From Caldilineaceae bacterium (GTDB taxonomy: Bacteria > Chloroflexota > Anaerolineae > Caldilineales > Caldilineaceae): DNA of 64,000 bases. This document shows, in pieces, positions 3,133 to 34,931 of this stretch. Below the pieces are notes generated by a model. That model was not told where the DNA came from. It searched no databases and was given only the letters and a program-made list of their open reading frames with translations. Positions within the stretch are counted from its first letter, which is position 1, and each line of letters begins with the position of its first letter. The stretch spans positions 1-64,000 of the forward strand of contig JAJEBF010000033.1 of the NCBI GenBank assembly GCA_022824025.1, written 5' to 3'. The position numbers were made by a program, and so were the translations under genes.

Positions 3133-3206
<74 letters not shown>

Positions 3207-3440
3207 CCTTCCGCAGCGTTCGATGTCCCCTATGCGAGAAGTTCAGAATCCAGTTCATCTGGCAGTTGATGCGGTCGTCCGTGTCGAGACTTGACGCGGC
3301 CGCAACCTTAGGCGTCCTTCTACAGAAATGGCCGATCATTGCCCCTCCCCGTAAAGCCTGGGTTCAGCCGGCGTTTCGCAACAGAACATTGACTGAATAG
3401 GCTTTCGCGATCTGCGGGTCCTTTCATTGCCTGATAGCGG

Positions 3441-8136: not shown

Positions 8137-9408
8137 TCATTCGTATTTAAAGCGGCGGATGCCGATGGCGAAGAGGACGACAGAAGCCGAGATGAGGACA
8201 CCTATTTCGGGGAGGACGTCAATGAAGCCGCCGTTGTACCAGATAAGGTCGTGAAAACCGTCCATGGCCCAGGCGACCGGGGAGAGATGCCCGAGCGTCT
8301 GCATGAATTCGGGCACGATTTCGAGCGGCCACCAGGCCCCGCCCAAGGGGGCGAGCGACAGAGACAGGAGTAGAACTAGGCCCCTGGCCTGGCCCTCGCT
8401 CTTGATCCAGGGGGCGAGGGCGAAGGTGAGGGCGGTGATGCAGAGGACGAAGGCGGCCATGACCGCGAGTAGCGCGGCAGGACTGCTGCCGAAGTCCATA
8501 CCGAGAGCTGCGCCGACAGCGAAAACGATGAAGTACTGAATCATGCCGAGTGAGAAATAGACGCCGATTTTGGCGCCGAGGATCTGGGCTCGGGATAGGG
8601 GAAGGGCCATCAGTCGTTGGAGCGTCCACTGGCTGCGCTCGCGCAGGAGGACGGCCATGCCGCCTAAGACTGTGAACATAACATACAGGGATCCCATTCC
8701 CGGCGCCGACTGGTTGAAGCCGTTCATTGAGCCGTCCTCGCTGGCGCTTTCGGCGTCGGCGACTCGGAAGCGGACGGGGGCTGGCTGCTCCGTCAGCATC
8801 TCTTGCGACCGCAGATAGAGGGCGCCAAGGAAGCCATCTAGCGTCTCAGTTTCAAGAGGCGGCAGTTCGAAGGCCGCCGTCAGATTCGTCAGCAGGGCGG
8901 CGGCCACACCCGTCGTCATGGATGCCGTGCTGGCGCGCTGCAGGACGGCGTTGAGGCTCTGCAGAACGGGGCCTGGCTGCATGGGGTCGGACAAAGAGTA
9001 GTAATCGACCGAGAAAATTTCGAACTCCTCCAAGGCCGCGGCGAAGCCAGCGGGGATCACGATCAGAGCGCTGGTGCGGCCCGTACGTGCGCGTTCGATG
9101 GCGCGCTCCAACTGTAATGGTTCCTCTCTCAGCCTGCAGAAGTCTTCAGCGTCGTTGTCGAGCGGGCACAGTACGATGGCGTCGTTGGCGGAGCGGAGGT
9201 CCTCGATCAGCTTGGCGGACATGCTGGTTTGGTCAAGATCGATCAGGTCGACTCGCAACCGGGTCGGTCCACCGCCGCCGATTTGGCCGAGACTCCATCC
9301 GATCACAAGTGTGAGGAGCACGGGGATGATGAGCAGGCCGGGGAGATTGGCCCGTTGCGAGAAGAAGATTTTCAGATCGTTGAGAATAATGGTCAGGATT
9401 GATCGCAT
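8137..9408 (-). CDS. ABC-2 type transporter permease
   Basis: N-terminal TM helix, a large extracytoplasmic loop, and a C-terminal 5-TM bundle. Confidence 0.75.
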   Translation of the reverse strand: MRSILTIILNDLKIFFSQRANLPGLLIIPVLLTLVIGWSLGQIGGGGPTRLRVDLIDLDQTSMSAKLIEDLRSANDAIVLCPLDNDAEDFCRLREEPLQLERAIERARTGRTSALIVIPAGFAAALEEFEIFSVDYYSLSDPMQPGPVLQSLNAVLQRASTASMTTGVAAALLTNLTAAFELPPLETETLDGFLGALYLRSQEMLTEQPAPVRFRVADAESASEDGSMNGFNQSAPGMGSLYVMFTVLGGMAVLLRERSQWTLQRLMALPLSRAQILGAKIGVYFSLGMIQYFIVFAVGAALGMDFGSSPAALLAVMAAFVLCITALTFALAPWIKSEGQARGLVLLLSLSLAPLGGAWWPLEIVPEFMQTLGHLSPVAWAMDGFHDLIWYNGGFIDVLPEIGVLISASVVLFAIGIRRFKYE

Positions 9409-9471
9409 TGCCGAATGCTGTCTAAAGTGCTGTTTTGCGTAGTCCGAATCAGTCGTAAGTCGAGCCGGAGG

Positions 9472-11070
9472 TTACAGATCCAAGCGGCGCTTGAAGAGCC
9501 ATGTGCCCACCAGAAAGAGAAGGATGCCCTGGCCAAAGAGAACAAGCAGGTTGACTGCGATGCCTGTCTGGGCATTGGCCAATTGCATGAATGCATCTAC
9601 GCCCCAGTAGATGAGAGAGAATCTGGCGGCCTGATCGGGCAGTGCAAAGCCGAAGGCGCCGCCCACAACGGCAAGAGAGATGTTTATCATCGGTCCGAAA
9701 AGATTAACCTGCTCTGGCGTCTTTGCCAGGCCTACCACAAATACACCCAGGCCCGATACGCAGAGTGCCAGCGCCAGGGTCACGATGATGATCGCAGCAA
9801 AGTTGGTTCCCCAGATCAATGTTGGCTGGCCGATGACAACGGAGGCAATCAGGGTCAGGGCGGCCAGGAGTATCAGTATCTGCAGGAAGACCGTGACCAG
9901 GTTTCCCAGCAGCTTGCCTGCCAGCAGGAAGATACGAGGGGTGGGTGATACGATCAGCCGCTGAAGGGTCCAGTACTTGCGCTCTTCGTAGATGGAATGG
10001 ATGCCGAAGACGCCGGTGAAGAGGGCGAAGAAGACCGCCTGCGACGCGCCGATCGGGACGATGGTGCGGGCGAAGCGGGGGGCTTCCTGAATGGGTTCCA
10101 GCGGCGGCTGGGCGGCGGTGATGTTGTTGGCGCCGGGGGTGATCAGGCAGCCGAGCGGTTCGAGCGCGGCGGCGTTCAGGTTTTGCAGACTGGTCGGGAG
10201 CGCCGACAGGTCAACTGCGCCAAGGTCGATTTCTCCCTCGACGATACCATTTGCAAGCGCATTTGCGGATGTTTCCAGAGTCGCCCCAAGCGCGACGCCG
10301 GCGCGCACAAACTGATTCACGATTCCCGAGACGATGCTGTGCAGGATGCGTGCGGAGACCGGCCGGCCGTTGTTGGCGTATACCTCGACTGTTCCGCCAT
10401 CGCCTGGAGATTGAGCTCGAAGTGTGAGGTTGTCATCGAAGGCAAATTTGGGCATTACCCGTTTGCTGAAGGCTGGGGGGACAATGACCGCGGCGACGAA
10501 TTCTCCATTGTCGACGGCGGCGCGCGCCTGTTCCGCATCGTCCATCGCAGTTGCATTCAGCAAGTCTTCCAGAGACCCTTGCGAAGCGACTGCAGGGGGG
10601 GCGGCACTCTCTGAATCGTCGAGCAGGCTGCATCCTAATTCGGTCAGATCGAATCCTTCAGTTGTGGTTGTACCGGTACCTTCCACCTGTTGGGACAACA
10701 GAATTGCGGCCAGTTGATCGCCGAAATTGAGCGCGGTTCCGTCCTGCGAGAGCTGGTCCGGTCCGACGCCGGCCTGGGTGAAGGCGCTGGCGAGATCACC
10801 GGGATCGAATGGCAGCGCATCCAGGTCGGCAAACTGGTCCGGCAGCGTGATCACCTCTTGCATGTCGACGCCTTCGTCGAGATTGACGACCGCGACCGGA
10901 ATGTCGGCGAAGTCAGGGAGTCCGGAGTCGCCGTTGCCGCCGATGCCGCCGAAGGCCAGCCCGATAATGGTGGACAGCACCAGCGGCGTCACGAACATGA
11001 GGAGCGCCAGGTTGCGATCGCGAAAGGCTGTGTATAATTCTTTGGAGGCGAAGGCGAGAATCTTTCGCAT
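9472..11070 (-). CDS. ABC-2 type transporter permease (second subunit)
   Basis: Same architecture as 8137-9408: a ~300-aa loop between TM1 and the C-terminal TM bundle. Confidence 0.75.
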   Translation of the reverse strand: MRKILAFASKELYTAFRDRNLALLMFVTPLVLSTIIGLAFGGIGGNGDSGLPDFADIPVAVVNLDEGVDMQEVITLPDQFADLDALPFDPGDLASAFTQAGVGPDQLSQDGTALNFGDQLAAILLSQQVEGTGTTTTEGFDLTELGCSLLDDSESAAPPAVASQGSLEDLLNATAMDDAEQARAAVDNGEFVAAVIVPPAFSKRVMPKFAFDDNLTLRAQSPGDGGTVEVYANNGRPVSARILHSIVSGIVNQFVRAGVALGATLETSANALANGIVEGEIDLGAVDLSALPTSLQNLNAAALEPLGCLITPGANNITAAQPPLEPIQEAPRFARTIVPIGASQAVFFALFTGVFGIHSIYEERKYWTLQRLIVSPTPRIFLLAGKLLGNLVTVFLQILILLAALTLIASVVIGQPTLIWGTNFAAIIIVTLALALCVSGLGVFVVGLAKTPEQVNLFGPMINISLAVVGGAFGFALPDQAARFSLIYWGVDAFMQLANAQTGIAVNLLVLFGQGILLFLVGTWLFKRRLDL

Positions 11071-11169
11071 CGTTCAAGGCAGTTTGCGGTGGATGGGGGG
11101 CGCTGGCCTCTCGCGGTCCCGCTGAGTACGTCCCGCAGCAGGGCAGTCCGGAGAAGAAGTGACCAGGAG

Positions 11170-12171
11170 TTAGTCTCTCAATGCGCGGCCTGTCAGAGCC
11201 AGGAACACCGCTTCAAGGTCCGGCTCGCGTACAGCTACGGATTGGATTTCGACGCCAGCCGCGTCCAGGTTCTGAATTAACTGCGGGAGCGCGGTGCGGC
11301 CCCGCTTTGCGAAGACTGTCAGACGAGAGGGGGTAGACTCGCTGCTGTCGTCGCTAACCTGCTCCGGCGGGTTGTAGAGGATACGGGTAACGCCTGCTGT
11401 CTCCTGTTGAATCCCTTCGGCCAATGATTCCTCGAATTCCTGTGCGCCAATTATGAATTCCAGGCGGTCCTCTTCGCCCACTTGCTGTGTCAGTTCGGTC
11501 TGGGTCCCTATGGCGATGATCTCGCCGTGATCCATGATGCCGACGCGGTCGCTCAGCTCCTGAGCCTCTTCCATCAGGTGGGTGGTGTAAAGGACTGTCA
11601 TGCCTTGTTCCTCACGCAGCAGCTTGACGGTGTCAAGGATGCGGCGCCGGCTCTGGGGATCGATGCCGACGGTGGGCTCGTCCATGTAGATGAGCGGAGG
11701 GCTGTTGAGGAGACCGGCAGCGAGGTTTATGCGGCGCTTCATGCCGCCGGAAAAGGTGTCGATGCGATCATTCTGACGGTCGGAGAGATCCACAAATTCG
11801 AGCAGTTCATCAACGCGGCGGCTCAGCTCCTTTCCGCCCAAGCCGTACATTCTACCGAAGAAGGCGAGGTTTTGGCGGGCGCTGAGTTCAGGGTAGAGGG
11901 CGATCTCCTGGGGAACGAAGCCCATGAGGCGCTTGGCGGCCATCGGCTCTTTGGTGATCGAGTAGCCGCCGATGGTTGCGTCGCCCCCGGTTGGCTCCAC
12001 CAGGCCGCTGATCATGGAGATCGTGGTGGTTTTGCCGGCGCCGTTGGGGCCGAGAAGGCTGAAGATCTCACCCTGGCGGATTTCGAGATCCACACCTTTG
12101 ACGGCTTCAATGGTGGAGCCATCGGGGCGTTTATAGGTTTTTCGCAGGTTGCGCGCCTCTACCATTAACTG
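11170..12171 (-). CDS. ABC transporter ATP-binding protein (ABC-2/DrrA-like)
   Basis: Walker A GPNGAGKTT, signature LSGGMKRR and Walker B LIYMDEP are present. The start was chosen at ATG CAG TTA (MQLMVEARNL), which is preceded by AAGGAG with a 5-nt spacer. The 466-aa six-frame ORF is an upstream in-frame extension. Confidence 0.85.
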   Translation of the reverse strand, partial: QLMVEARNLRKTYKRPDGSTIEAVKGVDLEIRQGEIFSLLGPNGAGKTTTISMISGLVEPTGGDATIGGYSITKEPMAAKRLMGFVPQEIALYPELSARQNLAFFGRMYGLGGKELSRRVDELLEFVDLSDRQNDRIDTFSGGMKRRINLAAGLLNSPPLIYMDEPTVGIDPQSRRRILDTVKLLREEQGMTVLYTTHLMEEAQELSDRVGIMDHGEIIAIGTQTELTQQVGEEDRLEFIIGAQEFEESLAEGIQQETAGVTRILYNPPEQVSDDSSESTPSRLTVFAKRGRTALPQLIQNLDAAGVEIQSVAVREPDLEAVFLALTGRALRD

Positions 12172-12590
12172 CATCGCGTCTCCTTTACTGTACATACGGC
12201 TGAGGATGGAGAAAGTTTCGGCGAGGGAGCACGGTCTGAATCGGGCAGCGCAAAGGTAGAATACCACTGGCTGTGAACTTGAAGCCAAGTTCGGACGTCT
12301 TGCTTCAGAGGTCGGTGATCGGTATGCGTTGGCCGGAGCCGGATAGGGAAAGGAGGCTGACAGGTGACCGGGGCGCGACCGGTTCTGCTGGGCAGATGGG
12401 ATAGGTTGTTGGGGAAATTGAGCATGGTGAAATCTGTGCGGCATTTTTTGCTTAGTTGTCGGAAGAGAAGTACAATTGTGCAGGCAGCCGGCGCCCCTGT
12501 GCCGCTGCCCCTTTTCATATGTCGATAGATGACAGCGCACGATGTTCTCCTTGCTTACGTCGGACGGCACCCACCTGGCGGACTTGAAGA

Positions 12591-13769
12591 ATGGCAGAAA
12601 CTTGCTCTACTCTCACACATCTTGCGTGCAGCCGGTGTGGTGAGGTATACGACTCGGAACAGCTGATGAATCTGTGCCCGGCCTGCGGGAAGCCGCTGCT
12701 GGCACGCTACGATCTGGGGCAGGCGGCGAAGACGCTGACCCGGGACTCTTTGCGGGCGCGTGAACCTTCGCTGTGGCGGTACGAAGAGGTGCTTCCGGTA
12801 CGGACGCGAGCGGGGCAGCTCAAGCTGGGTGAGGGATGGACGCCCCTGTTCCGCGCGCGGTCGCTGGGCAGTGAGATCGGATGCCCTGAAACTCTCATAA
12901 AGGATGAGTCGCTCAACCCGACGGGCAGCTTTAAGGCGCGAGGGTTGGTGATGGCGGTGGGTCGCGCTTTTGAGTTGGGGGCGGCGGAGCTGGCGATTCC
13001 GAGCGCGGGCAACGCGGCCGGCGCGATGAGCGCGTACGCCGCCAAGGCGGGACTGCCCGCCCATGTCTATATGCCTGAGGACGTACCGGCGGCGTTTCGC
13101 GTCGAGTGCAGCACGTTGGGTGCCCAGGTAACGCTTGTGGACGGCCTGATCACCGACTGCGGGGCGAAGGTGCGGGAGAAGGTCGAGGCGTTCGGCTGGT
13201 TTGACGTCAGCACGCTGAAGGAGCCCTACCGGATTGAGGGCAAGAAGACGATGGGCTATGAAATCGTTGAGCAGCTGGGCTGGCGCATGCCGGACGTCGT
13301 GATCTATCCGACGGGCGGCGGCACCGGGCTGGTGGGCATGTGGAAGGCGTTTGACGAGATGGAGGAGATGGGCCTGATTGGAAGCGAACGGCCGCGTATG
13401 GTGAGTGTGCAGAGCAGCGGCTGCGCGCCGATGGTGCGCGCGTTTGAGCAGGGGGATGAGTTTGCCGCGGCGTGGGAAGGCGCGAAGACGGTTGCGGACG
13501 GGCTGCGCGTTCCCGCGGCTGTGGGAGATTTCCTGATACTCGAAGCGGTTCGGGCAAGCGGCGGAGTGGCGCTCGCAGTCACCGACGAAGAGATGCTGGC
13601 CTGCGCCGAGCAGATGGGACGGCATACCGGCGTGTTTCCGGCGCCCGAGGGGGCGGCGACGCTGGCCGGTCAAAAGCGGTTGTTGGATTCAGGTTGGCTC
13701 CAGGGAGACGAAACGGTGGTATTGTTTAACACGGGCAGCGGGCTAAAGTATGCCCATTTATGGTCATAG
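12591..13769 (+). CDS. thrC: Threonine synthase, archaeal/class II type, with an N-terminal zinc ribbon
   Basis: CSRCGEVYDSEQLMNLCPACG is the zinc ribbon. PLP-lysine motif NPTGSFKARG is present. Fold-type II PLP enzyme. Confidence 0.7.
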   Translation: MAETCSTLTHLACSRCGEVYDSEQLMNLCPACGKPLLARYDLGQAAKTLTRDSLRAREPSLWRYEEVLPVRTRAGQLKLGEGWTPLFRARSLGSEIGCPETLIKDESLNPTGSFKARGLVMAVGRAFELGAAELAIPSAGNAAGAMSAYAAKAGLPAHVYMPEDVPAAFRVECSTLGAQVTLVDGLITDCGAKVREKVEAFGWFDVSTLKEPYRIEGKKTMGYEIVEQLGWRMPDVVIYPTGGGTGLVGMWKAFDEMEEMGLIGSERPRMVSVQSSGCAPMVRAFEQGDEFAAAWEGAKTVADGLRVPAAVGDFLILEAVRASGGVALAVTDEEMLACAEQMGRHTGVFPAPEGAATLAGQKRLLDSGWLQGDETVVLFNTGSGLKYAHLWS

Positions 13770-13775
13770 TCCTTA

Positions 13776-15476
13776 TTGCAACAGTCATGTAAAACAGTCG
13801 TGCCGGAAGAGAAGCCAAAGCACAAGGAAGACAATCGAGGTGTAAAGTTGGAACGCATCAAAAACTACAGGGCCGCGGTCGCCGGCCCGGAAGAGACCCA
13901 CGAGAGTCTGAGCGACGGCATAAACAGTATCGCTGATCTGCTGGCGCCGACACTTGGCCCGATTGGCGGCCACGTAGTGCATGAACGGGATGGCACGCGC
14001 GGTCCCGAGCTGCTGGATGACGCGGCGACGGCGGTGCGCCGCATACTGAGCCTGGGGGACCCGAAGGTGGATGTGGGCGCAATGTTGATGCGCCACATTG
14101 TTTGGCGGATTGCGGGGCAGGTGGGGGACGGCGGCACGGCAACAGCCCTGTTGACGCGGGAGATTTACCGCCAGGCCCTGAAGATGATGACGGCTGGTAT
14201 CGGCTACCGGGAGCTGGAGATCGGTCTGCAGGCGGCGACTGCAGCTGTACGCGAAGAGATGGCTGAGATGGCGAAGCCGGTCGAGACTGAGGACGAACTC
14301 TCTGTGGTGGCTCTGACGGTTGTCAAGGACCGCGACCTGGCCGCGACGATTGGCGAGTTGAGCTATCTGCTGGGCCCGGACGCACGAGTTTCGGTCGAGA
14401 AATTTGTGGCTCCGTACCTGGCCCGTGAATACCATGCCGGCGCCAATTACAAGGCGGAGATCGCCAGTTTCCATCTTTACACAGACCCGATTCGCAAATG
14501 GGCGATCTACGGCGACTCCACGGTTGCGCTTGTCGATGACACGCTCTCTGAGGCGTCTGAGACAGTTACGCTGATCGAGCGGGCGATGGAAATGGGCAAA
14601 AAGTCTCTTGTCATCATTGCCTCCCATATCAAGGAGGAGGCTCTGCATGTTATGGTGCGCAACCAGACCGAGGAGAAGAAGAAGCTTTCAATTCTCGGCA
14701 TCCAGCTGAAGGAGATTGGCGACCCGAGACGCATGGCATTCCAGGACCTTTCGACGCTCACGGGGGCCAATATTCTGGGCCGCAACTATTACGCATACGC
14801 GGCCAACGCCAAAGAGGCCGATCTGGGCGAAGCGATGCGGGTCCAGGTTGACCGCAAGATGATGCAGCTGCAGCCCTTTCAGAGCCGCATCGCCGAGATG
14901 CGGGAAACGGTCGATCAGCTACGAACCAGGCTGGAGGGACTGCGGGTGGATGATGAAGAACGCGATGACATCATCAACCGGCTGGCTGCGCTCACGGGCG
15001 GAATGGGTGTGCTGAAGGTCGGCACCAACCTCAAGCATGAGCGCGACCTCGTATCGGCTCTGTCGGAGCGGGCGCTGACAGCCGCGTCGCAGGCGCACAG
15101 GACCGGCGTCGTGCCGGGAGGCGGCGCGGCATTCGTGCATGCGCGCAGGGCGCTGGATACACTTGAGATGGACGGCGAGGAGAACGTCGGCGTCAAGGTG
15201 TTGAAGGATTCGCTGGGCGCGCCCTTTTTGCAGATTGTCCAGAACGCGGGCATCGAGTCTCCTTCGGTGGCGGCCCTTCGCCTGGAAGAGGCCGGGCCGG
15301 ACTATGCGTACGATGTTATCAAGAAGAAGCTGGTCAATGCCCGGGAAACGGGCCTGGTGGATGTAACGGGCGTGCAGACTGCGGTGCTGGAAACGGCCGT
15401 CAGCGGCGCGCTGATGGCGTTGGGCACCAACACAATCGTATTCCACCGCGATCCAACAGAAAGCATGGAACCGTAA
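13776..15476 (+). CDS. Divergent GroEL/Cpn60-family chaperonin paralogue (no GGM tail, Lys/Glu-rich N-terminal extension)
   Basis: Aligns to GroEL along its whole length: PTLGPIGGHVV (LGPKGRNVV), GDGGTATALL (GDGTTTATVL), LTGGMGVLKVGT (LAGGVAVIKVGA), VVPGGGAAFV (VVAGGGVALI). Ends ...HRDPTESMEP with no Gly-Gly-Met repeats. Start is 6 nt after the thrC stop. Confidence 0.8.
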   Translation: MQQSCKTVVPEEKPKHKEDNRGVKLERIKNYRAAVAGPEETHESLSDGINSIADLLAPTLGPIGGHVVHERDGTRGPELLDDAATAVRRILSLGDPKVDVGAMLMRHIVWRIAGQVGDGGTATALLTREIYRQALKMMTAGIGYRELEIGLQAATAAVREEMAEMAKPVETEDELSVVALTVVKDRDLAATIGELSYLLGPDARVSVEKFVAPYLAREYHAGANYKAEIASFHLYTDPIRKWAIYGDSTVALVDDTLSEASETVTLIERAMEMGKKSLVIIASHIKEEALHVMVRNQTEEKKKLSILGIQLKEIGDPRRMAFQDLSTLTGANILGRNYYAYAANAKEADLGEAMRVQVDRKMMQLQPFQSRIAEMRETVDQLRTRLEGLRVDDEERDDIINRLAALTGGMGVLKVGTNLKHERDLVSALSERALTAASQAHRTGVVPGGGAAFVHARRALDTLEMDGEENVGVKVLKDSLGAPFLQIVQNAGIESPSVAALRLEEAGPDYAYDVIKKKLVNARETGLVDVTGVQTAVLETAVSGALMALGTNTIVFHRDPTESMEP

Positions 15477-15479
15477 ACG

Positions 15480-16400
15480 ATGTCGATTATTCTCTCTCTT
15501 TCTGAACATGAAGGAAGTATCTGGGCCGCCGGCCCCTACGGCCTGTTTGCCGTTGGCGAAGAGGAGCTGACACCCACCCCCCAGCCGCAGGAAAGGTTGA
15601 CCGCGGCCTGCAGTCTTGGGGACCGCATCTTTACCGGTGGCGCGCCCTTTGGCGTGGCCTATCTTCTGGACAGTGCGGAACAGTGGCAGGCGGCGTGGCA
15701 GGAGGGCGCTGATTCAGCGGTACTCACATTTGCCTCGGCGCCGGACTACGACGATTCCGGCGTTATCCTGGCAGGCAGCGAGGGTGACGGCGTGCTTCGC
15801 AGTCGCGATCGGGGTCTGCGCTGGATGCCCAGCAATTTCGGATTGCGGAACCTGACGGTTCTGACGCTGGCGTGGGCGCCGCCGATGGACGAGGACACGT
15901 GGCCCCACTGGCAGGTCGTGTTCGCGGGAACGGAGGAGGGCATCTACCGTTCGCCGAATGCTGGGCTGGGGTGGAAGCGCAGCGAATCGGCTGACGCGGC
16001 CTACCAGACTGTGGCGGTTGCGCCTGACGTACATTGCAGCGGGCTGGTGCTGGCTGGAACCGAAGCGGGCGGACTTTGGCGGTCCACAGACGGAGGCCGC
16101 TCGTTCGACACGGTTGAAAAGGCGCCGGAGCAGGTGAACGCGTTGCTCGCCCTGGCAAACGGGTCGGAAGGCGCGTCCGCGGGCGGGGGAAGTTCGGCCG
16201 GCTGGTTACTGAGCGATGACACGCAGCTGTGGTGCTCGCAGGACGGTGCCGCCTGGTCCCCGGTTGAAGGCAGCACGCCGGCCCTGTGCATGCTGGAGAT
16301 AGACGGTCGCGTATACATTGGCGGCGAGAATGGCGTGACCGTGCTGAACAGCGCAAATTTGCAGGTGGAAAGGCTTCTACAGATTCCGCCCATTTCGTAG
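15480..16400 (+). CDS. BNR/Asp-box repeat beta-propeller protein (Ycf48-like), cytoplasmic (no signal peptide)
   Basis: Repeated blades AGSEGDGVLRSRDRGLRW, AGTEEGIYRSPNAGLGW, AGTEAGGLWRSTDGGRSF and GGENGVTVL. The ATG is 3 nt after the GroEL-like TAA. Confidence 0.7.
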   Translation: MSIILSLSEHEGSIWAAGPYGLFAVGEEELTPTPQPQERLTAACSLGDRIFTGGAPFGVAYLLDSAEQWQAAWQEGADSAVLTFASAPDYDDSGVILAGSEGDGVLRSRDRGLRWMPSNFGLRNLTVLTLAWAPPMDEDTWPHWQVVFAGTEEGIYRSPNAGLGWKRSESADAAYQTVAVAPDVHCSGLVLAGTEAGGLWRSTDGGRSFDTVEKAPEQVNALLALANGSEGASAGGGSSAGWLLSDDTQLWCSQDGAAWSPVEGSTPALCMLEIDGRVYIGGENGVTVLNSANLQVERLLQIPPIS

Positions 16401-16640: not shown

Positions 16641-17711
16641 ATGCTACTTATTGACGCCCACCTCGACCTGGCTATGAACGCGTTGCAGGGCAACCGGGAT
16701 CTGACGCGTTCGGTTTATACGATTCGCACGACCGAGCAGAAGATAAGCGGAAAGGGCAAGGGCTACGGCACGGTCGCCTTCCCGGAGATGCGGCAAGGCC
16801 GCGTCGCCCTCAGTTTCGCGACCGCGATCGCGCGGTCAACGGGACGCCCTACGCCCAATATCGACTACGATCACCCCACCCAGGCCAGCGCGATGGCGCA
16901 GGGTCATCTGGCGTATTACCGGGGGCTGGAGGACCTTGGGATCGTGCGCGTCATCACGACCGGGGCCGAGCTGGAAGAACACTGGAGCAGCTGGACGGCA
17001 TGGGAGGATACGGGAGGGGAGGAGCCGCCGCTCGGCTTTGTGCTGTCGATGGAGGGGGCGGACCCGATTCTGACGCCTGACCATGTCGAATTCTGGTATG
17101 AAGCGGGTTTGCGGGCAATCGGCCCGTCCCACTACGGGCCCAACCGCTATGCGGGCGGCACCGGGACCGAACTGGGACTGGGAGACATGGGGCCGGCGCT
17201 GCTGCGGGAGATGGAACGGTTGGGAATCATACTGGACCTGACGCACCTGTCGGATGAGTCGTTCTGGGAGGCGTTGGAGATCTACAATGGCCCGGTGCTG
17301 GCCAGCCACAACAACTGCCGGGCGATCGTTCCGCACCAGCGCCAGTTCAGCGATGAGCAGTTGCGGGCGATTATTGAACGCGGCGGAGTGGTCGGCATGG
17401 CAATGGACGTTTGGATGATGTCGACGAAGTGGCGGGCCGGGCAGGAGTGGAACTACGATATTATGCTGGAAGATTTGGCGCCGCACATCGATCACATTTG
17501 CGAGCTGGCGGGCAACGCCAGCAACATCGCCATCGGCACCGATCTTGACGGCGGCTTTGGCCGCGAGCAGTCTCCGGCCGACCTGGATACGATCGCGGAC
17601 CTGCAGCGGATCCCGGATTTGTTACGCGGGAACGGCTACGCGGAGGATGACATCGCGGCGATCTGTCATGGGAACTGGCTGCGGCTCTTGCGGGGGGCTT
17701 TGAAGGACTAG
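16641..17711 (+). CDS. Membrane dipeptidase (peptidase family M19)
   Basis: N-terminal LLIDAHLDLAMN (IDGHNDLP-like) and length are consistent with the renal dipeptidase family. Confidence 0.8.
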   Translation: MLLIDAHLDLAMNALQGNRDLTRSVYTIRTTEQKISGKGKGYGTVAFPEMRQGRVALSFATAIARSTGRPTPNIDYDHPTQASAMAQGHLAYYRGLEDLGIVRVITTGAELEEHWSSWTAWEDTGGEEPPLGFVLSMEGADPILTPDHVEFWYEAGLRAIGPSHYGPNRYAGGTGTELGLGDMGPALLREMERLGIILDLTHLSDESFWEALEIYNGPVLASHNNCRAIVPHQRQFSDEQLRAIIERGGVVGMAMDVWMMSTKWRAGQEWNYDIMLEDLAPHIDHICELAGNASNIAIGTDLDGGFGREQSPADLDTIADLQRIPDLLRGNGYAEDDIAAICHGNWLRLLRGALKD

Positions 17712-17714
17712 GAT

Positions 17715-18242
17715 ATGCCCATGCGGGGTCTGGCGCTCCTTACTGTGATGGCGGCGGCACTGGTCCTCTTCGCTTGCGCGCGGTCCGGCGGTGAAGAAAG
17801 CGGTCAGGCGCCGCTGAGCCAAACCCCGGCTGTGGAAGCAACGGCAACTCCGACTGAGGAGCCGGTTCCTCAACTGGAAGGGACAGTGGACAGGGCGGAC
17901 GTTTCCGATGCTCAACTGGTGGCGGTGGGAGAGGTCCTTTACCAGCGGCACTGCGCATCTTGTCACGGAGCAGAACTGGAGGGTCAGCCAAACTGGAAGC
18001 AACGGGATGAGAACGGATATTTACCGGCGCCCCCGCACGATGAGACAGGGCACACCTGGCATCATCCCGACGAGCAGTTATTTGAGATTACCAAGATCGG
18101 GACGGAAGCATTTGTCGGCATGGGATACAGGAGCAACATGATCGGGTTTGAAGATCAGCTCAGCGATTCCGAGATCTGGGCCGTGCTGGCATTTATCAAG
18201 AGCGAGTGGTCTCCAAGGATTCAGAGGGCACAGCCCAAATAG
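17715..18242 (+). CDS. Lipoprotein cytochrome c (class I, one heme)
   Basis: Lipobox LFACA. Heme-binding CASCH. Start overlaps the dipeptidase stop. Confidence 0.75.
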   Translation: MPMRGLALLTVMAAALVLFACARSGGEESGQAPLSQTPAVEATATPTEEPVPQLEGTVDRADVSDAQLVAVGEVLYQRHCASCHGAELEGQPNWKQRDENGYLPAPPHDETGHTWHHPDEQLFEITKIGTEAFVGMGYRSNMIGFEDQLSDSEIWAVLAFIKSEWSPRIQRAQPK

Positions 18243-18338
18243 ATTCATCTGTGGCGGAAATAGAGGAATCGCTTCCCCGCAAGAGTATGTATCGGGCTCC
18301 CAATACAATGCTGCGCCAGTATATTTGAAGAGGACGGA

Positions 18339-18506
18339 ATGACGATCATTTGTACAGTCCAGGAACTTCAGAGAACCGTTTCTCAACTCTCGGCGCAGGA
18401 CCTCGCTCGATTCAGGAAGTGGTTTGAGGAATTAGAGGCAAAAAGGTGGGACGAGCAGTTTGAAGAGGACGTCAAGAGTGGGAAACTGGACCATCTTGCC
18501 GAATAA
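18339..18506 (+). pseudogene. Orphan addiction-module antitoxin-like ORF (55 codons) ending at an in-frame TAA; no toxin partner
   Basis: MTIICTVQELQRTVSQLSAQDLARFRKWFEELEAKRWDEQFEEDVKSGKLDHLAE* followed in frame by TIADLRAGRCGVL*. Full-length relatives (recalled from memory) end ..KLDALAEKALQDHKAGRTTEL. SD GAGGAC is present. The ORF is below the 60-aa ORF-track cut-off. Confidence 0.4.
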
Positions 18507-18656
18507 ACCATTGCCGACTTGCGAGCTGGGAGGTGCGGAGTACTGTGAGGCTTTTCGCAAGACTTCCTTTGAAGGACTCTATAGCAAGATTGTTTGACAG
18601 AGATAGTGCATCCATACACTCTCTTCTTTTGTAAGAGATAACGGGAGACATCAGTA

Positions 18657-19037
18657 ATGCGTAAGGAAGTGTACACTGAGAAGGGAGCGCCGCCCGCGGG
18701 CATCTACTCGCAGGGCATCGTGGCAGACGGACCGGTCGCGTATATCGCGGGGCAGGGGCCGCTGGATCCGGCCACAGGTCAACGCGTCGAGGGCGGGTTT
18801 CGCGAGCAGGCGACGCGAGTATTCGACAATCTGACGATCCTGCTTGAGGCGGCGGGCACTTCGTGGGAACACGTGACGAAGGTCGGCGTCTTTCTGGCCG
18901 ACCTGAATGACTTCGCGGAGATGAACGAAGTCTACCAGCAGTATGTCACCAAGCCGTATCCGGCGCGTACGACGGTCGGCTGCCAGTTGCCAAACATCAT
19001 GATCGAAGTTGATTGCATTGCGGTCGTGCCGGAATAG
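18657..19037 (+). CDS. RidA/YjgF/TdcF-family reactive intermediate deaminase
   Basis: GAPPAGIYSQGIVADGPVAYIAGQGPLDP, with the typical length and C-terminus. Confidence 0.85.
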   Translation: MRKEVYTEKGAPPAGIYSQGIVADGPVAYIAGQGPLDPATGQRVEGGFREQATRVFDNLTILLEAAGTSWEHVTKVGVFLADLNDFAEMNEVYQQYVTKPYPARTTVGCQLPNIMIEVDCIAVVPE

Positions 19038-19089
19038 AGACGGTGAAGACAGAATCTGTCGACCAGTAGGATGGAAACAGGAGCGAAAA

Positions 19090-19383
19090 ATGACATTTGA
19101 CGAATTCAAGGCCAGCCTTTCGAACGAGGCGCCGCCGGACGATGTGAGCGCTCCCCTGCGTGCGCTTTGGATGGTGGAAGGCGACGACTGGGAAGGCGCC
19201 CACGTCCTTTTGCAGGATCTGCCTGACGGCAACGGCGTGGCGTGGGTGCACGCGTATCTGCACCGGGTTGAAGGCGATCTCCCGAATGCCGATCACTGGT
19301 ACCGCCGCGCGCAGAAACCGGCCAGCAGGGCGCCTCTGCCGCAGGAGTGGGAAGAGATCGCCCGCGCCCTGTTGGAGGCCTGA
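19090..19383 (+). CDS. Hypothetical protein (97 aa)
   Basis: ATG preceded by AGGAG. No recognisable family. Confidence 0.4.
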   Translation: MTFDEFKASLSNEAPPDDVSAPLRALWMVEGDDWEGAHVLLQDLPDGNGVAWVHAYLHRVEGDLPNADHWYRRAQKPASRAPLPQEWEEIARALLEA

Positions 19384-19460
19384 TCGTTTCGTAGCAAGCT
19401 GCTGATTGTCCGCGTGTTAACGCAAGTTTGTACGTTGCGGAAAGGATCTTCCCTACCCTG

Positions 19461-20672
19461 ATGCCATACCCATCCTTCGCGCCCTCTGCCGAACGCGTCC
19501 CGGAATCCCGCATTCGGGCGCTGGCGGACGTAGCCTTTGGCATGGAGGACGTGCTGTTCCTGCAGTTCGGCGAGTCGACCCTGCCGACACCACCCTACGT
19601 GGTGGACGCGGTCAACCGGGCAGCGCAGGAAGGTTGGACCTTTTATTCACCCAATCAGGGTTTACCGTCGCTGCGGGACGCGATCGTCGACCTGATCGCG
19701 AGATTGCACGGCGTAGAGATTGGGGCATCGGAAATCCAGGTCACGTCGGGGGGTGTGCAGGCGCTCAACCTGGCGATCAAGTGTGTGATCGATCCGGGTG
19801 ATGAGGTTCTGGTGCTGAGCCCGAACTGGCCGAACGGGTCGGCCATGGTAGAGATGTTCGGCGGACGGGCGATTGAGGTGCCGATGGCTCGTGTGGGGCA
19901 GCGGTTTACGCCGGACGTGGAGGCCATGGAACGCGCGCTGTCGCCGCGTACGCGCATGCTTTTGTACGCTTCGCCCTCCAATCCGCTTGGCTGGACGGCG
20001 ACGGTTTCTGAACAGCAGATGTTGCTGGATTTCACGCGCCAGAACGGGTTGTGGCTGCTGACTGACGAGGTCTACGAGCGGATATACTACGGCGGTCAGG
20101 GCGCTGTTGAGAGCGTGCAGGGTCAGGCAGGTTCCGGGCAGATCGCGCCGTCGATTCTTAAGCTGTGTTCGCGTGAAGACGCAGTCATCGTCGTCAACTC
20201 CTTTTCGAAGACCTACTGCATGACCGGCTGGCGGCTTGGATGGATGGTGAGCCGGGCGGACTTCGTGAGGAAAGCGGCGCAGCTGAACGAGTTCATCGTT
20301 TCGCACGCGCCGACGATGATCCAGCGGGGCGGCGAGGCTGCCATCGCCCACGGCGAAGACGACATCGCGGCGATGGTGGAGGAGTTTCAGGAACGGCGGG
20401 ACTTCTGCGCCGGGATGTTGAGAACTGTACCCGGTGTCAACCTGCCGGAGCCGGAGGGGGCCTTCTATCTGTTCCCGCAGCTCGAAGGCGTTGAAGACTC
20501 GTTCCAATTCTCTCTTGAGCTATTGCAGGAGAGGCATGTAGCCGTTGCCCCGGGCAGTGCTTTTGGCAACGGAGGCGAAGGATCGATTCGTATCTGTTAC
20601 GCGCCGGATATGGACGTCTTGAAGCCGGCGATGGAACGGATCTGCGAGTTCATACAGACATATCATTCCTAG
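19461..20672 (+). CDS. Class I/II PLP-dependent aminotransferase (aspartate aminotransferase-like)
   Basis: PLP lysine in NSFSKTYCMTGWRLGW. The start is uncertain: ATG at 19461, or the in-frame TTG at 19428. Confidence 0.8.
   Translation: MPYPSFAPSAERVPESRIRALADVAFGMEDVLFLQFGESTLPTPPYVVDAVNRAAQEGWTFYSPNQGLPSLRDAIVDLIARLHGVEIGASEIQVTSGGVQALNLAIKCVIDPGDEVLVLSPNWPNGSAMVEMFGGRAIEVPMARVGQRFTPDVEAMERALSPRTRMLLYASPSNPLGWTATVSEQQMLLDFTRQNGLWLLTDEVYERIYYGGQGAVESVQGQAGSGQIAPSILKLCSREDAVIVVNSFSKTYCMTGWRLGWMVSRADFVRKAAQLNEFIVSHAPTMIQRGGEAAIAHGEDDIAAMVEEFQERRDFCAGMLRTVPGVNLPEPEGAFYLFPQLEGVEDSFQFSLELLQERHVAVAPGSAFGNGGEGSIRICYAPDMDVLKPAMERICEFIQTYHS

Positions 20673-31536: not shown

Positions 31537-31540
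<4 letters not shown>
30644..31540 (-). CDS. DUF2344 (TIGR03936-like) radical-SAM-associated protein with a Lys/Arg-rich C-terminal tail
   Basis: VRFTYEKGEAIKFISHQDESRLWERTLRRANLPLLYKRGFNPQP. The start overlaps the stop of the upstream radical SAM gene. Confidence 0.7.
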
Positions 31541-33660
<2,120 letters not shown>

Positions 33661-33932
33661 ATTCAGTTCCTTCTCATCTGCCGACCGGCGGCGCGGTCCC
33701 GGTTGGGCGGTCACGCTTGCGGCCGGGCGGGATTTGAACCCGCTCATTGCCAAGCGGCGCCGGGTGGCGCAAGGGCTTGGCGAATCGAATTCCGAACTGT
33801 CCGGGTGGACGCGCGGAGTTGCCGTCATTATAGAAGGTGCGGGCGGGAGGATCAAATCTGTTGGCGAAGTGGTTTTGACTTCGTAACGCTTTTCTCCTAT
33901 ACTGTCTGCTGTCACGGCTTGGCAGAAGTTCT

Positions 33933-34005
33933 GCCCCGTTCGTCTAGAGGCCCAGGACACCACCCTCTCAAGGTGGAGACAGGGGTTCGACTCCCCTACG
34001 GGGTA
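33933..34005 (+). tRNA. tRNA-Glu (anticodon CTC)
   Basis: Acceptor GCCCCGT pairs with ACGGGGT (G1-U72). Anticodon stem is CCACC/GGTGG with loop CTCTCAA. T-arm contains GGTTCGACTCC. Confidence 0.8.
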
Positions 34006-34014
34006 CAGGAAGAG

Positions 34015-34046
34015 AAAATCCCGCTGCGTTCAGCGGGATTTTCTGT
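34015..34046 (+). terminator. Rho-independent terminator after tRNA-Glu
   Basis: AAAATCCCGCTG - cgtt - CAGCGGGATTTT is a 12-bp perfect stem. Confidence 0.65.
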
Positions 34047-34931
34047 CTTGCTGATCGGAATCCCTTACGTTGGTTTTTTACAACCTTCTTTCCTCATAAC
34101 GTGGAGGAGAAAGAAATGGCGATAGTCATCCCGGCGTCCGCCTTTAGTGATGACAGAATAACGTCCGGTTAAGAGAGGGCGCTTCGGACCCTGCGAGACG
34201 GACTAGATGATTCTGTTTTACTTTGGTTTCAGCCAACAGCTGCGGCAGCCACATGAGCCGATATCATTGCATACATACCCGAACTTGGAATCATATTATA
34301 TGAGATAAAGGATTGGACTCTTGACAACATCCGAGACGCCAATGACCTGCCCTCGACGTTTGTAGATCCATCGCGAGTGACATTATGAGCTTGGCCCCAA
34401 AAACTGGACCACGAGCTATGGTGTATGGTGGAGCAATTCACCTAGCCTGTGGAGGGGCAGAACGATGGTCAAGAAACGGCGGCGACACACAAAGGTATCA
34501 TGCGACGTAATCCCGCTCGGTAACGGCAGAAACCTGGCCAACCATTCCTTCTTTGCCCGACCCAATTCCGCAACCGCTTCCCAGTCATCCGCACTTCACA
34601 GGATTGTACATATCGTTATCACCAGCATGTCCAGCATCTGATGGTGCCGATTGACCGTTGCGCGCGGATCCTCTAATTCCCTAATGTGATTGTCGAACGC
34701 CTCCCAAGATTCATTCACCACGTCTTCCCTTCTGCTAAGGTTTTTACGTGAGAACAAATCCCTTTCTCATTTTGTCAACCCTCCTTAAGGTTCGCGATTG
34801 CCCTGGGGCTTGCCCCACCGTAACATCTCTGACATCGCTACTGCTTTCCAGTGACACTTATGCACACCCCTCATTTAAGTATGCTATAATATAGGCGGAT
34901 GGCAGTCTGCCAGTCCACAACGAACAGGGAG

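Follow-up and report, generated by a model that had tools for sequence, protein, structure and literature searches.

Why should a divergent GroEL-like gene stand directly in front of a beta-propeller gene, and what could two such proteins do together? The question is raised by a 64,000-nucleotide stretch of a Caldilineaceae genome (contig JAJEBF010000033.1, positions 1 to 64,000; hereafter the window), in which three open reading frames (ORFs) follow one another on the plus strand at 12591-13769, 13776-15476 and 15480-16400. The initial annotation of this locus had named them a threonine synthase, a divergent Cpn60 and a BNR-type beta-propeller, all of which our analysis bears out, and had proposed that the chaperonin either serves a dedicated client or puts the Cpn60 fold to a non-chaperone use, which remains the right pair of hypotheses. 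Here, we show that the second and third genes are strictly co-inherited and usually tightly coupled, and that they form a real and apparently undescribed two-gene module. The central idea of the initial annotation is thus supported, whereas its details concerning the threonine synthase gene (thrC), an N-terminal extension of the chaperonin and an intact ATPase are not.

For the Caldilineales survey, an alignment of the propeller was scanned against one genome per species, yielding 63 loci with a propeller orthologue (43-95% identity), all labelled Caldilineaceae, Caldilineales, Litorilinea or Chloroflexota. The Cpn60-like gene lay immediately upstream and on the same strand in 63/63 of these loci, with gaps of 1-316 nucleotides (nt). 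Each of five Cpn60-like homologues (42-86% identity), found in differing genomic contexts, had an orthologue of the propeller gene (277-311 amino acids, aa) next downstream, and no Cpn60 neighbour accompanied the weaker propeller relatives of other phyla (identity of 36% or less). Across 36 diverse loci, the Cpn60-like and propeller genes were common to all 36 and no other gene was; a conserved third gene, sought among these same loci, was not found. The thrC gene adjoined the pair in 10/36, an M19 dipeptidase gene was present in 7/36 and a short-chain dehydrogenase gene in 7/36. The thrC ORF of the window (12591-13769, plus strand) does encode a threonine synthase (NCBIfam NF006050, 587.8 bits against a cut-off of 303, with a Pfam PALP match), and it had been counted as a member of the unit. 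Its adjacency is limited to loci in which the Cpn60-like protein shares 52% identity or more with the window copy, and in one locus (L001) two opposite-strand genes separate it from the pair. On this synteny, confined to one sub-clade, we rejected thrC as a module member; it is a lineage-specific neighbour outside the conserved module.

The pairing extends well beyond this order. An exhaustive, profile-free search recovered at least ~130 clusters (at 50% identity) that are closer to the window Cpn60-like protein than canonical GroELs are. These share a GDGxAT(A) phosphate loop, a residue other than Asp at position 398 (E. coli GroEL numbering, used throughout for family positions) and a short C-terminal tail with the pattern ...H[RK]xPxxSxEP. 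Where the source names the organism, it is Anaerolineae, Anaerolineales or Chloroflexota only. Of four distant clade members examined in context, three adjoin a homologous BNR propeller (E-values against the window propeller of 1e-26 to 1e-35), and 80 further loci came from a metagenome scan. Among the wider-clade loci, 62 were evaluable, with at least 900 nt of sequence downstream; a homologous propeller lay directly downstream on the same strand in 50/62, at gaps of -53 to +244 nt and in many cases with a 4-nt stop/start overlap, and on the opposite strand in a further 2/62. The adjacency on which the initial annotation had rested its proposal therefore holds in the Caldilineales loci and in these 50 loci alike. 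Upstream genes in the wider-clade loci are unrelated. A neighbour-joining tree groups the non-canonical Cpn60s into one clade, joined by a long branch to the canonical GroELs, so that the paralogue does not cluster with ordinary GroELs. Because partnered members occur in every sub-clade of this tree, the pairing is most simply read as ancestral, and the module would then be much older than the Caldilineales.

Individual loci show further arrangements. Ten propeller-less Cpn60 loci (L093-L096, L098, L121, L126, L155, L080 and L084) have no propeller within 1.3-4 kb downstream, and the non-canonical Cpn60 of L080 is flanked by IS110 and DDE transposases. In a long-read metagenome-assembled genome (L069:2240-4680), both genes of the pair match in fragments only, which could reflect a pseudogenised module or an assembly error. 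In one Caldilineales sub-clade (eight loci: L048, L050-L054, L065 and L066), the pair is preceded by a conserved gene for a protein of 129 aa, which begins with a hydrophobic helix (MKRLFKFLFFVALIGAVAYVV...). Among long Cpn60 hits we found no Cpn60-propeller (Rosetta-stone) fusion, all of them being tandem Cpn60-Cpn60 proteins. Six of these (P0288, P0300, P0324, P0325, P0367 and P0380; 830-1170 aa) carry a canonical-type Cpn60 with GDGTTT followed by a non-canonical Cpn60 in one frame, and are either genuine fusions or separate genes called as one; in P0380, a further ~270 aa stand at the N-terminus.

Within the window, the start of the Cpn60-like gene is assigned to TTG 13848, because orthologous loci hold in-frame stop codons in the 72 nt 5' of this codon and because a Shine-Dalgarno-like GAGGTG (13837-13842, plus strand), placed 5 nt before the TTG, is conserved in motif and spacing across orthologous loci. 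The gene, first of the conserved pair, thus reads 13848-15476 on the plus strand (542 aa, 58.9 kDa). Its homologues are likewise 542 aa, not 566 aa as in the longest ORF reading (13776-15476, plus strand, TTG 13776), which we rejected on account of the stops. With the start at 13848, the Lys/Glu-rich stretch first taken for an N-terminal extension is untranslated, an artefact of the longest-ORF reading, and the gap to thrC widens from the 6 nt initially given to 78 nt. The 3-nt gap to the propeller gene stands: the junction reads TAA ACG ATG (15474-15482, plus strand), and the propeller gene, second of the pair, runs from 15480 to 16400 on the plus strand (306 aa, 32.2 kDa, pI 4.2). No CIRCE/HrcA heat-shock operator was found in the window, sigma-70 promoter and terminator scans gave nothing above chance, and PADLOC anti-phage defence models returned zero hits for the three proteins. 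As had been noted for the immediate vicinity, no groES is present, nor is a second or canonical Cpn60, anywhere in the 64 kb.

To which family does the first protein of the pair belong? It matches Pfam PF00118 (Cpn60/TCP-1) with 95.9 bits against a cut-off of 34.3, and falls under all NCBIfam GroEL cut-offs, the best model being NF009487 (270.9 bits against 352) and TIGR02348 giving 237.9 against 582.1. Sequence identity amounts to 27% with E. coli GroEL and to 27-31% with canonical GroELs. Models of the chlamydial variants GroEL2 and GroEL3 (NF038370 and NF038369) score 61.8 and 91.4 bits against a cut-off of 600. Group II models (thermosome/CCT) give at most 33 bits against cut-offs of 400-695, and the profile scores therefore point clearly to a group I origin. 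The AlphaFold2 (AF2) model is a complete three-domain GroEL subunit (predicted local distance difference test, pLDDT, 89.5; predicted template modelling score, pTM, 0.82), collinear with E. coli GroEL over residues about 11-523. In Foldseek comparisons it reached template modelling (TM) scores of 0.78-0.83 to GroES-bound cis-ring subunits and 0.61 to apo GroEL, a difference into which we read no functional state.

Residues were compared between 64 Caldilineales members and E. coli GroEL, and position 398 was surveyed in 87 wider-clade members. The family keeps T30-P33 (TLGP), D52, D87, G414-416 and D495, so that the ATP motifs reported as intact are in part present; the remainder is altered. 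At the position of the catalytic Asp398 of GroEL, the window protein has Arg408 (codon 15069-15071, plus strand; EDAL to ERAL), at the same spacing to the GGG motif as in GroEL. This Arg occurs in 64/64 Caldilineales members, and the 87 wider-clade members have Arg (39), Lys (16), Gln (12), Ala (10), Glu (6), His (2), Thr (1) or Met (1), and never Asp. The phosphate loop reads GDGGTA (residues 93-98; 14124-14141, plus strand) in place of the GroEL GDGTTT (86-91), with T89 replaced by Gly in 64/64 Caldilineales members and T90 by Ala in 86/87 wider-clade members. K51 is changed to Asp and R404 to Ser. The GroEL mutant D398A binds ATP and GroES, and its ATP hydrolysis runs at a few per cent of wild type. 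Because of this phenotype and the clade-wide loss of Asp398, an intact ATPase cannot be assumed, and the clade has very probably abandoned the hydrolytic cycle of canonical GroEL but retained a conserved pocket.

The surfaces through which GroEL subunits communicate and bind substrates are also changed. The inter-subunit pair R197/E386 has become Ala/Lys, and the D83-K327 allosteric contact is altered. In helices H and I, the hydrophobic positions are partly kept (L234V/I, L237I/M/L, L259L, V263V), and the groove position V264 is R, T or S. A charged insertion (EEKKK) follows the apical helix I equivalent (after E. coli residue 267 in the family alignment; 14661-14687, plus strand); it measures 6 aa in the window copy and up to ~40 aa in relatives. 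Mean identity within the family is 42% for the apical, 50% for the equatorial and 55% for the intermediate domain, the opposite of the canonical situation, in which the apical domain is the most conserved (63% when E. coli GroEL is compared with the canonical copy of locus L064). The C-terminus confirms that the Gly-Met-rich (GGM) tail is missing: the window protein ends in ...VFHRDPTESMEP, with HRDPTESMEP (15444-15473, plus strand) in its place. This Pro-terminated tail of about nine residues follows the pattern V[YF]H[RK]xPxxSxxP in all Caldilineales orthologues, recurs in similar form in most wider-clade members, and has low AF2 confidence in the monomer model. As a minor observation, the helical segment that follows the apical domain (residues 380-404 of the 566-aa ORF; 14985-15059) gives a sub-threshold Pfam match to DUF7557 (E 1.6e-5; 24.6 bits, cut-off 25), which probably arose by chance from a coiled helix.

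Against canonical GroEL/GroES, then, the protein shares the three-domain fold, TLGP, D52, D87, G414-416 and D495, and differs in Arg at 398, the GDGGTA loop, Asp at 51, the changed R197/E386 pair and an apical domain that is the least rather than the most conserved. Unlike a canonical groESL operon, the locus has no GGM tail, adjacent groES or CIRCE element, and the downstream gene encodes a propeller.

Canonical chaperonins do exist separately in relatives. Canonical groES and then groEL directly follow the pair in two of the Caldilineales loci, L064 (L064:3-4254, labelled Litorilinea sp.) and L062 (L062:2248-6424, labelled Caldilineaceae); groES spans 2191-2487 and groEL 2623-4254 in L064. 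Their canonical groEL products share 58-60% identity with E. coli GroEL, and the L064 copy, which is complete, carries GDGTTT, EDAL and a Gly-Met tail. Because these genes coexist with the pair, the Cpn60-like gene is, by gene content, an additional and seemingly specialised paralogue. It is about 25-37% identical per domain to the canonical GroEL of the same organism. Adjacency to groESL was seen in 2/63 Caldilineales loci, and a second Cpn60 in 0/84 wider loci; the arrangement in L064 and L062 may be a relic of the duplication from which the paralogue arose, or may reflect co-regulation.

The partner was modelled from a 39-sequence alignment as an all-beta protein of seven blades with four strands each (pLDDT 89.6, pTM 0.89). 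It carries the Asp-box motifs SRDRGLRW, SPNAGLGW, STDGGRSF and SQDGAAW, that is, repeated S-x-D-x-G-x-x-W motifs on a seven-bladed fold, which identifies it as a BNR/Asp-box propeller. No Pfam model scored above threshold on the window propeller, BNR and PSII_BNR included, and the NCBIfam F510_1955 family glycosylhydrolase model (NF045728) gave 76.2 bits against a cut-off of 175. By eye, no signal-peptide-like N-terminus is evident, so that the protein may be cytoplasmic, as initially annotated. Conserved residues are mostly structural repeat positions, with no evident active or binding site, and the propeller is conserved to the same degree as the Cpn60-like protein. Asp-boxes and the seven-bladed fold are shared with Ycf48/HCF136, other BNR propellers and GH74 xyloglucanases, and JGI labels some orthologues 'photosystem II stability/assembly factor-like'. 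The resemblance to Ycf48 and GH74 enzymes is nevertheless distant (Foldseek TM about 0.6, 12-18% identity): Ycf48 itself (5oj3) gave a TM of 0.61 at 12% identity, no better than unrelated propellers. The PSII_BNR model (PF14870) had no hit in the window protein and faint hits in distant partners. The organism is not known as a phototroph. The model can also be superposed on WD40 propellers, among them G-beta, Cdc20 and RACK1, several of these being known CCT clients.

In the wider clade, partners fall into two size classes of about 246-341 aa and 586-679 aa. Roughly half belong to the larger class (~67 kDa), in which the repeat pattern is doubled and which probably consists of two propellers in tandem. 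Examples of double-length partners are found in L085, L091, L100, L101, L103, L106 and L137, often with a 4-nt overlap with the stop codon of the Cpn60-like gene. Mirror-tree analysis gave partial correlations with propeller divergence of 0.53 for the apical, 0.60 for the intermediate and 0.23 for the equatorial domain; since the pairs share a phylogeny and are not independent, the apical and intermediate signal is a weak hint at most.

How might these two proteins work? The scheme towards which we lean, though we stop short of calling it probable, is an ancient, co-inherited two-gene module of the Chloroflexota class Anaerolineae, the Caldilineales included, in which a GroEL-derived 'pseudo-chaperonin' would act as a non-cycling holdase or assembly platform dedicated to its cognate seven-bladed Asp-box propeller. 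The Cpn60-like protein retains the three-domain GroEL architecture in its predicted structure and a conserved nucleotide pocket in the family alignment, and it probably still forms rings. Nucleotide would be bound and hydrolysed slowly or not at all, as the phenotype of GroEL D398A suggests, and a GroES-capped, rapidly cycling folding cage would not operate. The propeller, translated right after the Cpn60-like protein from the same mRNA, would be captured and held until it closes or is handed on. We infer from sequence and gene order that the two proteins act together and that ATP is turned over slowly, if at all. Encapsulation under a GroES cap is also unlikely to be the mode of action, because Asp398 is lost, the groove is altered and partners of ~67 kDa exceed the GroEL-GroES cage limit of roughly 60 kDa.

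Several observations weigh against this holdase scheme. The inter-ring salt bridge R452-E461 is mostly lost. Low apical conservation is awkward if the apical domain is the specific docking site. No propeller homologue is adjacent in 10/62 evaluable wider-clade loci, and the Pro-terminated tail persists in these ten, so that the tail is not demonstrably tied to the partner. An invariant Arg398 could support a different catalytic chemistry, which is why the loss of ATPase activity has to be argued rather than read off the alignment. Finally, genes translationally coupled one to one and equal conservation of their products fit a stable complex at least as well.

Such a stable, non-chaperone hetero-complex is a close rival of the holdase scheme, one that we consider possible but doubtful. 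Here, the Cpn60 fold would provide a nucleotide-binding, non-hydrolysing ring scaffold, and the propeller a permanent module for binding a ligand or partner. The clade-wide loss of Asp398 in an otherwise strongly conserved pocket is the pattern of a pseudo-enzyme, and the overlapping or nearly overlapping stop and start codons suggest production at a 1:1 ratio. A propeller as conserved as its Cpn60-like neighbour, double-length partners too large to encapsulate and co-inheritance at the level of a class all suit this view as well. However, a permanent complex is not reflected in any Cpn60-propeller fusion, the long Cpn60 hits being tandem Cpn60-Cpn60 proteins throughout, nor in a conserved third gene that would hint at a pathway; propeller conservation is mostly structural, with no active or binding site standing out, and the variability of the apical domain speaks against a fixed interface at that site. 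In its fullest form, a catalytically silent GroEL-derived ring in permanent complex with a single or double-length propeller would be a new cytoplasmic machine of the Anaerolineae, a nucleotide-sensing scaffold in place of a folding cage, and this we likewise consider possible but doubtful.

It is less likely still that the Cpn60-like protein serves canonical GroEL/GroES as a specificity subunit, either by co-assembly or by hand-over, and recruits the propeller to it. Precedents for such subunits are chloroplast Cpn60 alpha/beta and the action of BBS6/10/12 with CCT. The modules of L064 and L062, directly upstream of groES-groEL, the database proteins that join a canonical to a non-canonical Cpn60, and an equatorial (ring-contact) domain better conserved than the apical would all agree with it. 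But groESL adjacency is rare (2/63 Caldilineales loci, with no second Cpn60 in the 84 wider loci), per-domain identity to the organism's own canonical GroEL is about 25-37%, and the changes in the R197-E386 and D83-K327 contacts make mixed rings less likely.

Comparably small is the chance that the protein is an ordinary, spare GroEL2-type general chaperone with a classical ATP/GroES cycle, and the propeller a co-transcribed neighbour or ordinary client. Source databases do label it 'chaperonin GroEL', and the fold, most pocket residues and part of the hydrophobic positions of helices H and I are kept. Set against this are scores under every NCBIfam GroEL cut-off, the loss of Asp398 in 87/87 members, a changed GDGTTT, the absent GGM tail and the long branch to canonical GroELs, and the conservation of the partner goes far beyond ordinary synteny, all other neighbours being variable. 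Weakest of all, and already contradicted by synteny, is a three-gene thrC operon in which chaperonin and propeller serve threonine biosynthesis, to which we give almost no credence: thrC does lie 78 nt upstream on the same strand in the window and is kept upstream in the sub-clade with Cpn60-like proteins at least 52% identical to the window copy, but it is missing from 26/36 diverse loci and cut off by two opposite-strand genes in L001, and the upstream genes of the wider-clade loci are unrelated.

The holdase scheme has its nearest functional analogies in eukaryotes. CCT/TRiC folds WD40 propellers, and the divergent chaperonin-like proteins BBS6, BBS10 and BBS12 are assembly factors in BBSome propeller assembly. 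In each case, a chaperonin-fold protein is tied to a seven-bladed propeller, by analogy and not by homology: those proteins are group II chaperonins, whereas the Cpn60-like protein has a clear group I origin, and unlike the CCT clients the window propeller is of the Asp-box/BNR type and not WD40 (8-14% identity). Among bacteria, chlamydial GroEL2/GroEL3, mycobacterial GroEL1/Cpn60.1 and Myxococcus GroEL2 are extra copies with atypical C-termini and no adjacent groES, for which narrow client ranges have been proposed (PMC5904260, PMC11978752). The Cpn60-like protein resembles them in being an extra copy with an atypical C-terminus and no adjacent groES; unlike it, they have no strictly conserved propeller neighbour reported, and the five phyla listed with multiple chaperonins do not include Chloroflexota (PMC5904260, PMC11978752). 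Phage chaperonins of the phiEL gp146 type are divergent, group-I-like and work without a separate lid (bioRxiv 10.1101/2020.02.24.962803), and differ in being viral and active ATPases, with no conserved propeller partner reported. Phage chaperonins are absent from the best PDB sequence hits of the window Cpn60-like protein. In the literature searched, we found no description of the clade or of the pairing, though one could exist beyond it.

Group I chaperonins are textbook general, ATP-driven folding cages, and paralogues of them are usually regarded as spares or as copies for stress. The clade described here, whose members are annotated simply as 'GroEL', is large and monophyletic, lacks the catalytic Asp and the Gly-Met tail, and is hard-wired to a propeller across class-level divergence, so that the finding corrects a widespread annotation. 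If the pair is a chaperone and its client, it would be a bacterial counterpart of the CCT-WD40 relationship and a natural system for asking why propellers are difficult to fold; a stable complex, by contrast, would represent a chaperonin turned pseudo-enzyme scaffold. On either reading, it offers a simple two-gene system, testable by co-expression.

The genes around the pair were characterized as well. Upstream, on the minus strand, an ABC-2 type exporter operon occupies 8137-12570 and comprises an ATPase and two ABC2 membrane proteins. The N-terminus of the ATPase ORF (466 aa, GTG 12570) is probably over-extended, because the ABC domain begins at residue 158 and relatives are 334 aa long (L006). 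Downstream of the pair lies an M19 membrane dipeptidase gene (16641-17711, Pfam), followed by genes for a c-type cytochrome (17715-18242), a RidA/L-PSP protein (18657-19037) and an aminotransferase (19428-20672), these last three named from the Pfam labels of the syntenic genes in the close relative L006, in which the gene order of 16641-20672 is conserved.

The sole Rfam/ARAGORN hits in the window are tRNA-Val(CAC) at 3133-3208 and tRNA-Glu(CTC) at 33933-34006. The latter lies at the edge of a low-GC island, inside the ORFs 31537-33963 (minus strand) and 31540-34125 (plus strand), which overlap each other, so that at least one of them is a shadow ORF. Lower-GC islands are found at 26-28 kb (GC 0.54, AT skew -0.25), 34-36 kb (GC 0.51) and 38-40 kb (GC 0.54). 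GC skew is positive in almost every 2-kb bin, reaching 0.2-0.33 between 46 and 62 kb, and the cumulative skew climbs steadily to 4.9 over positions 1-64000.

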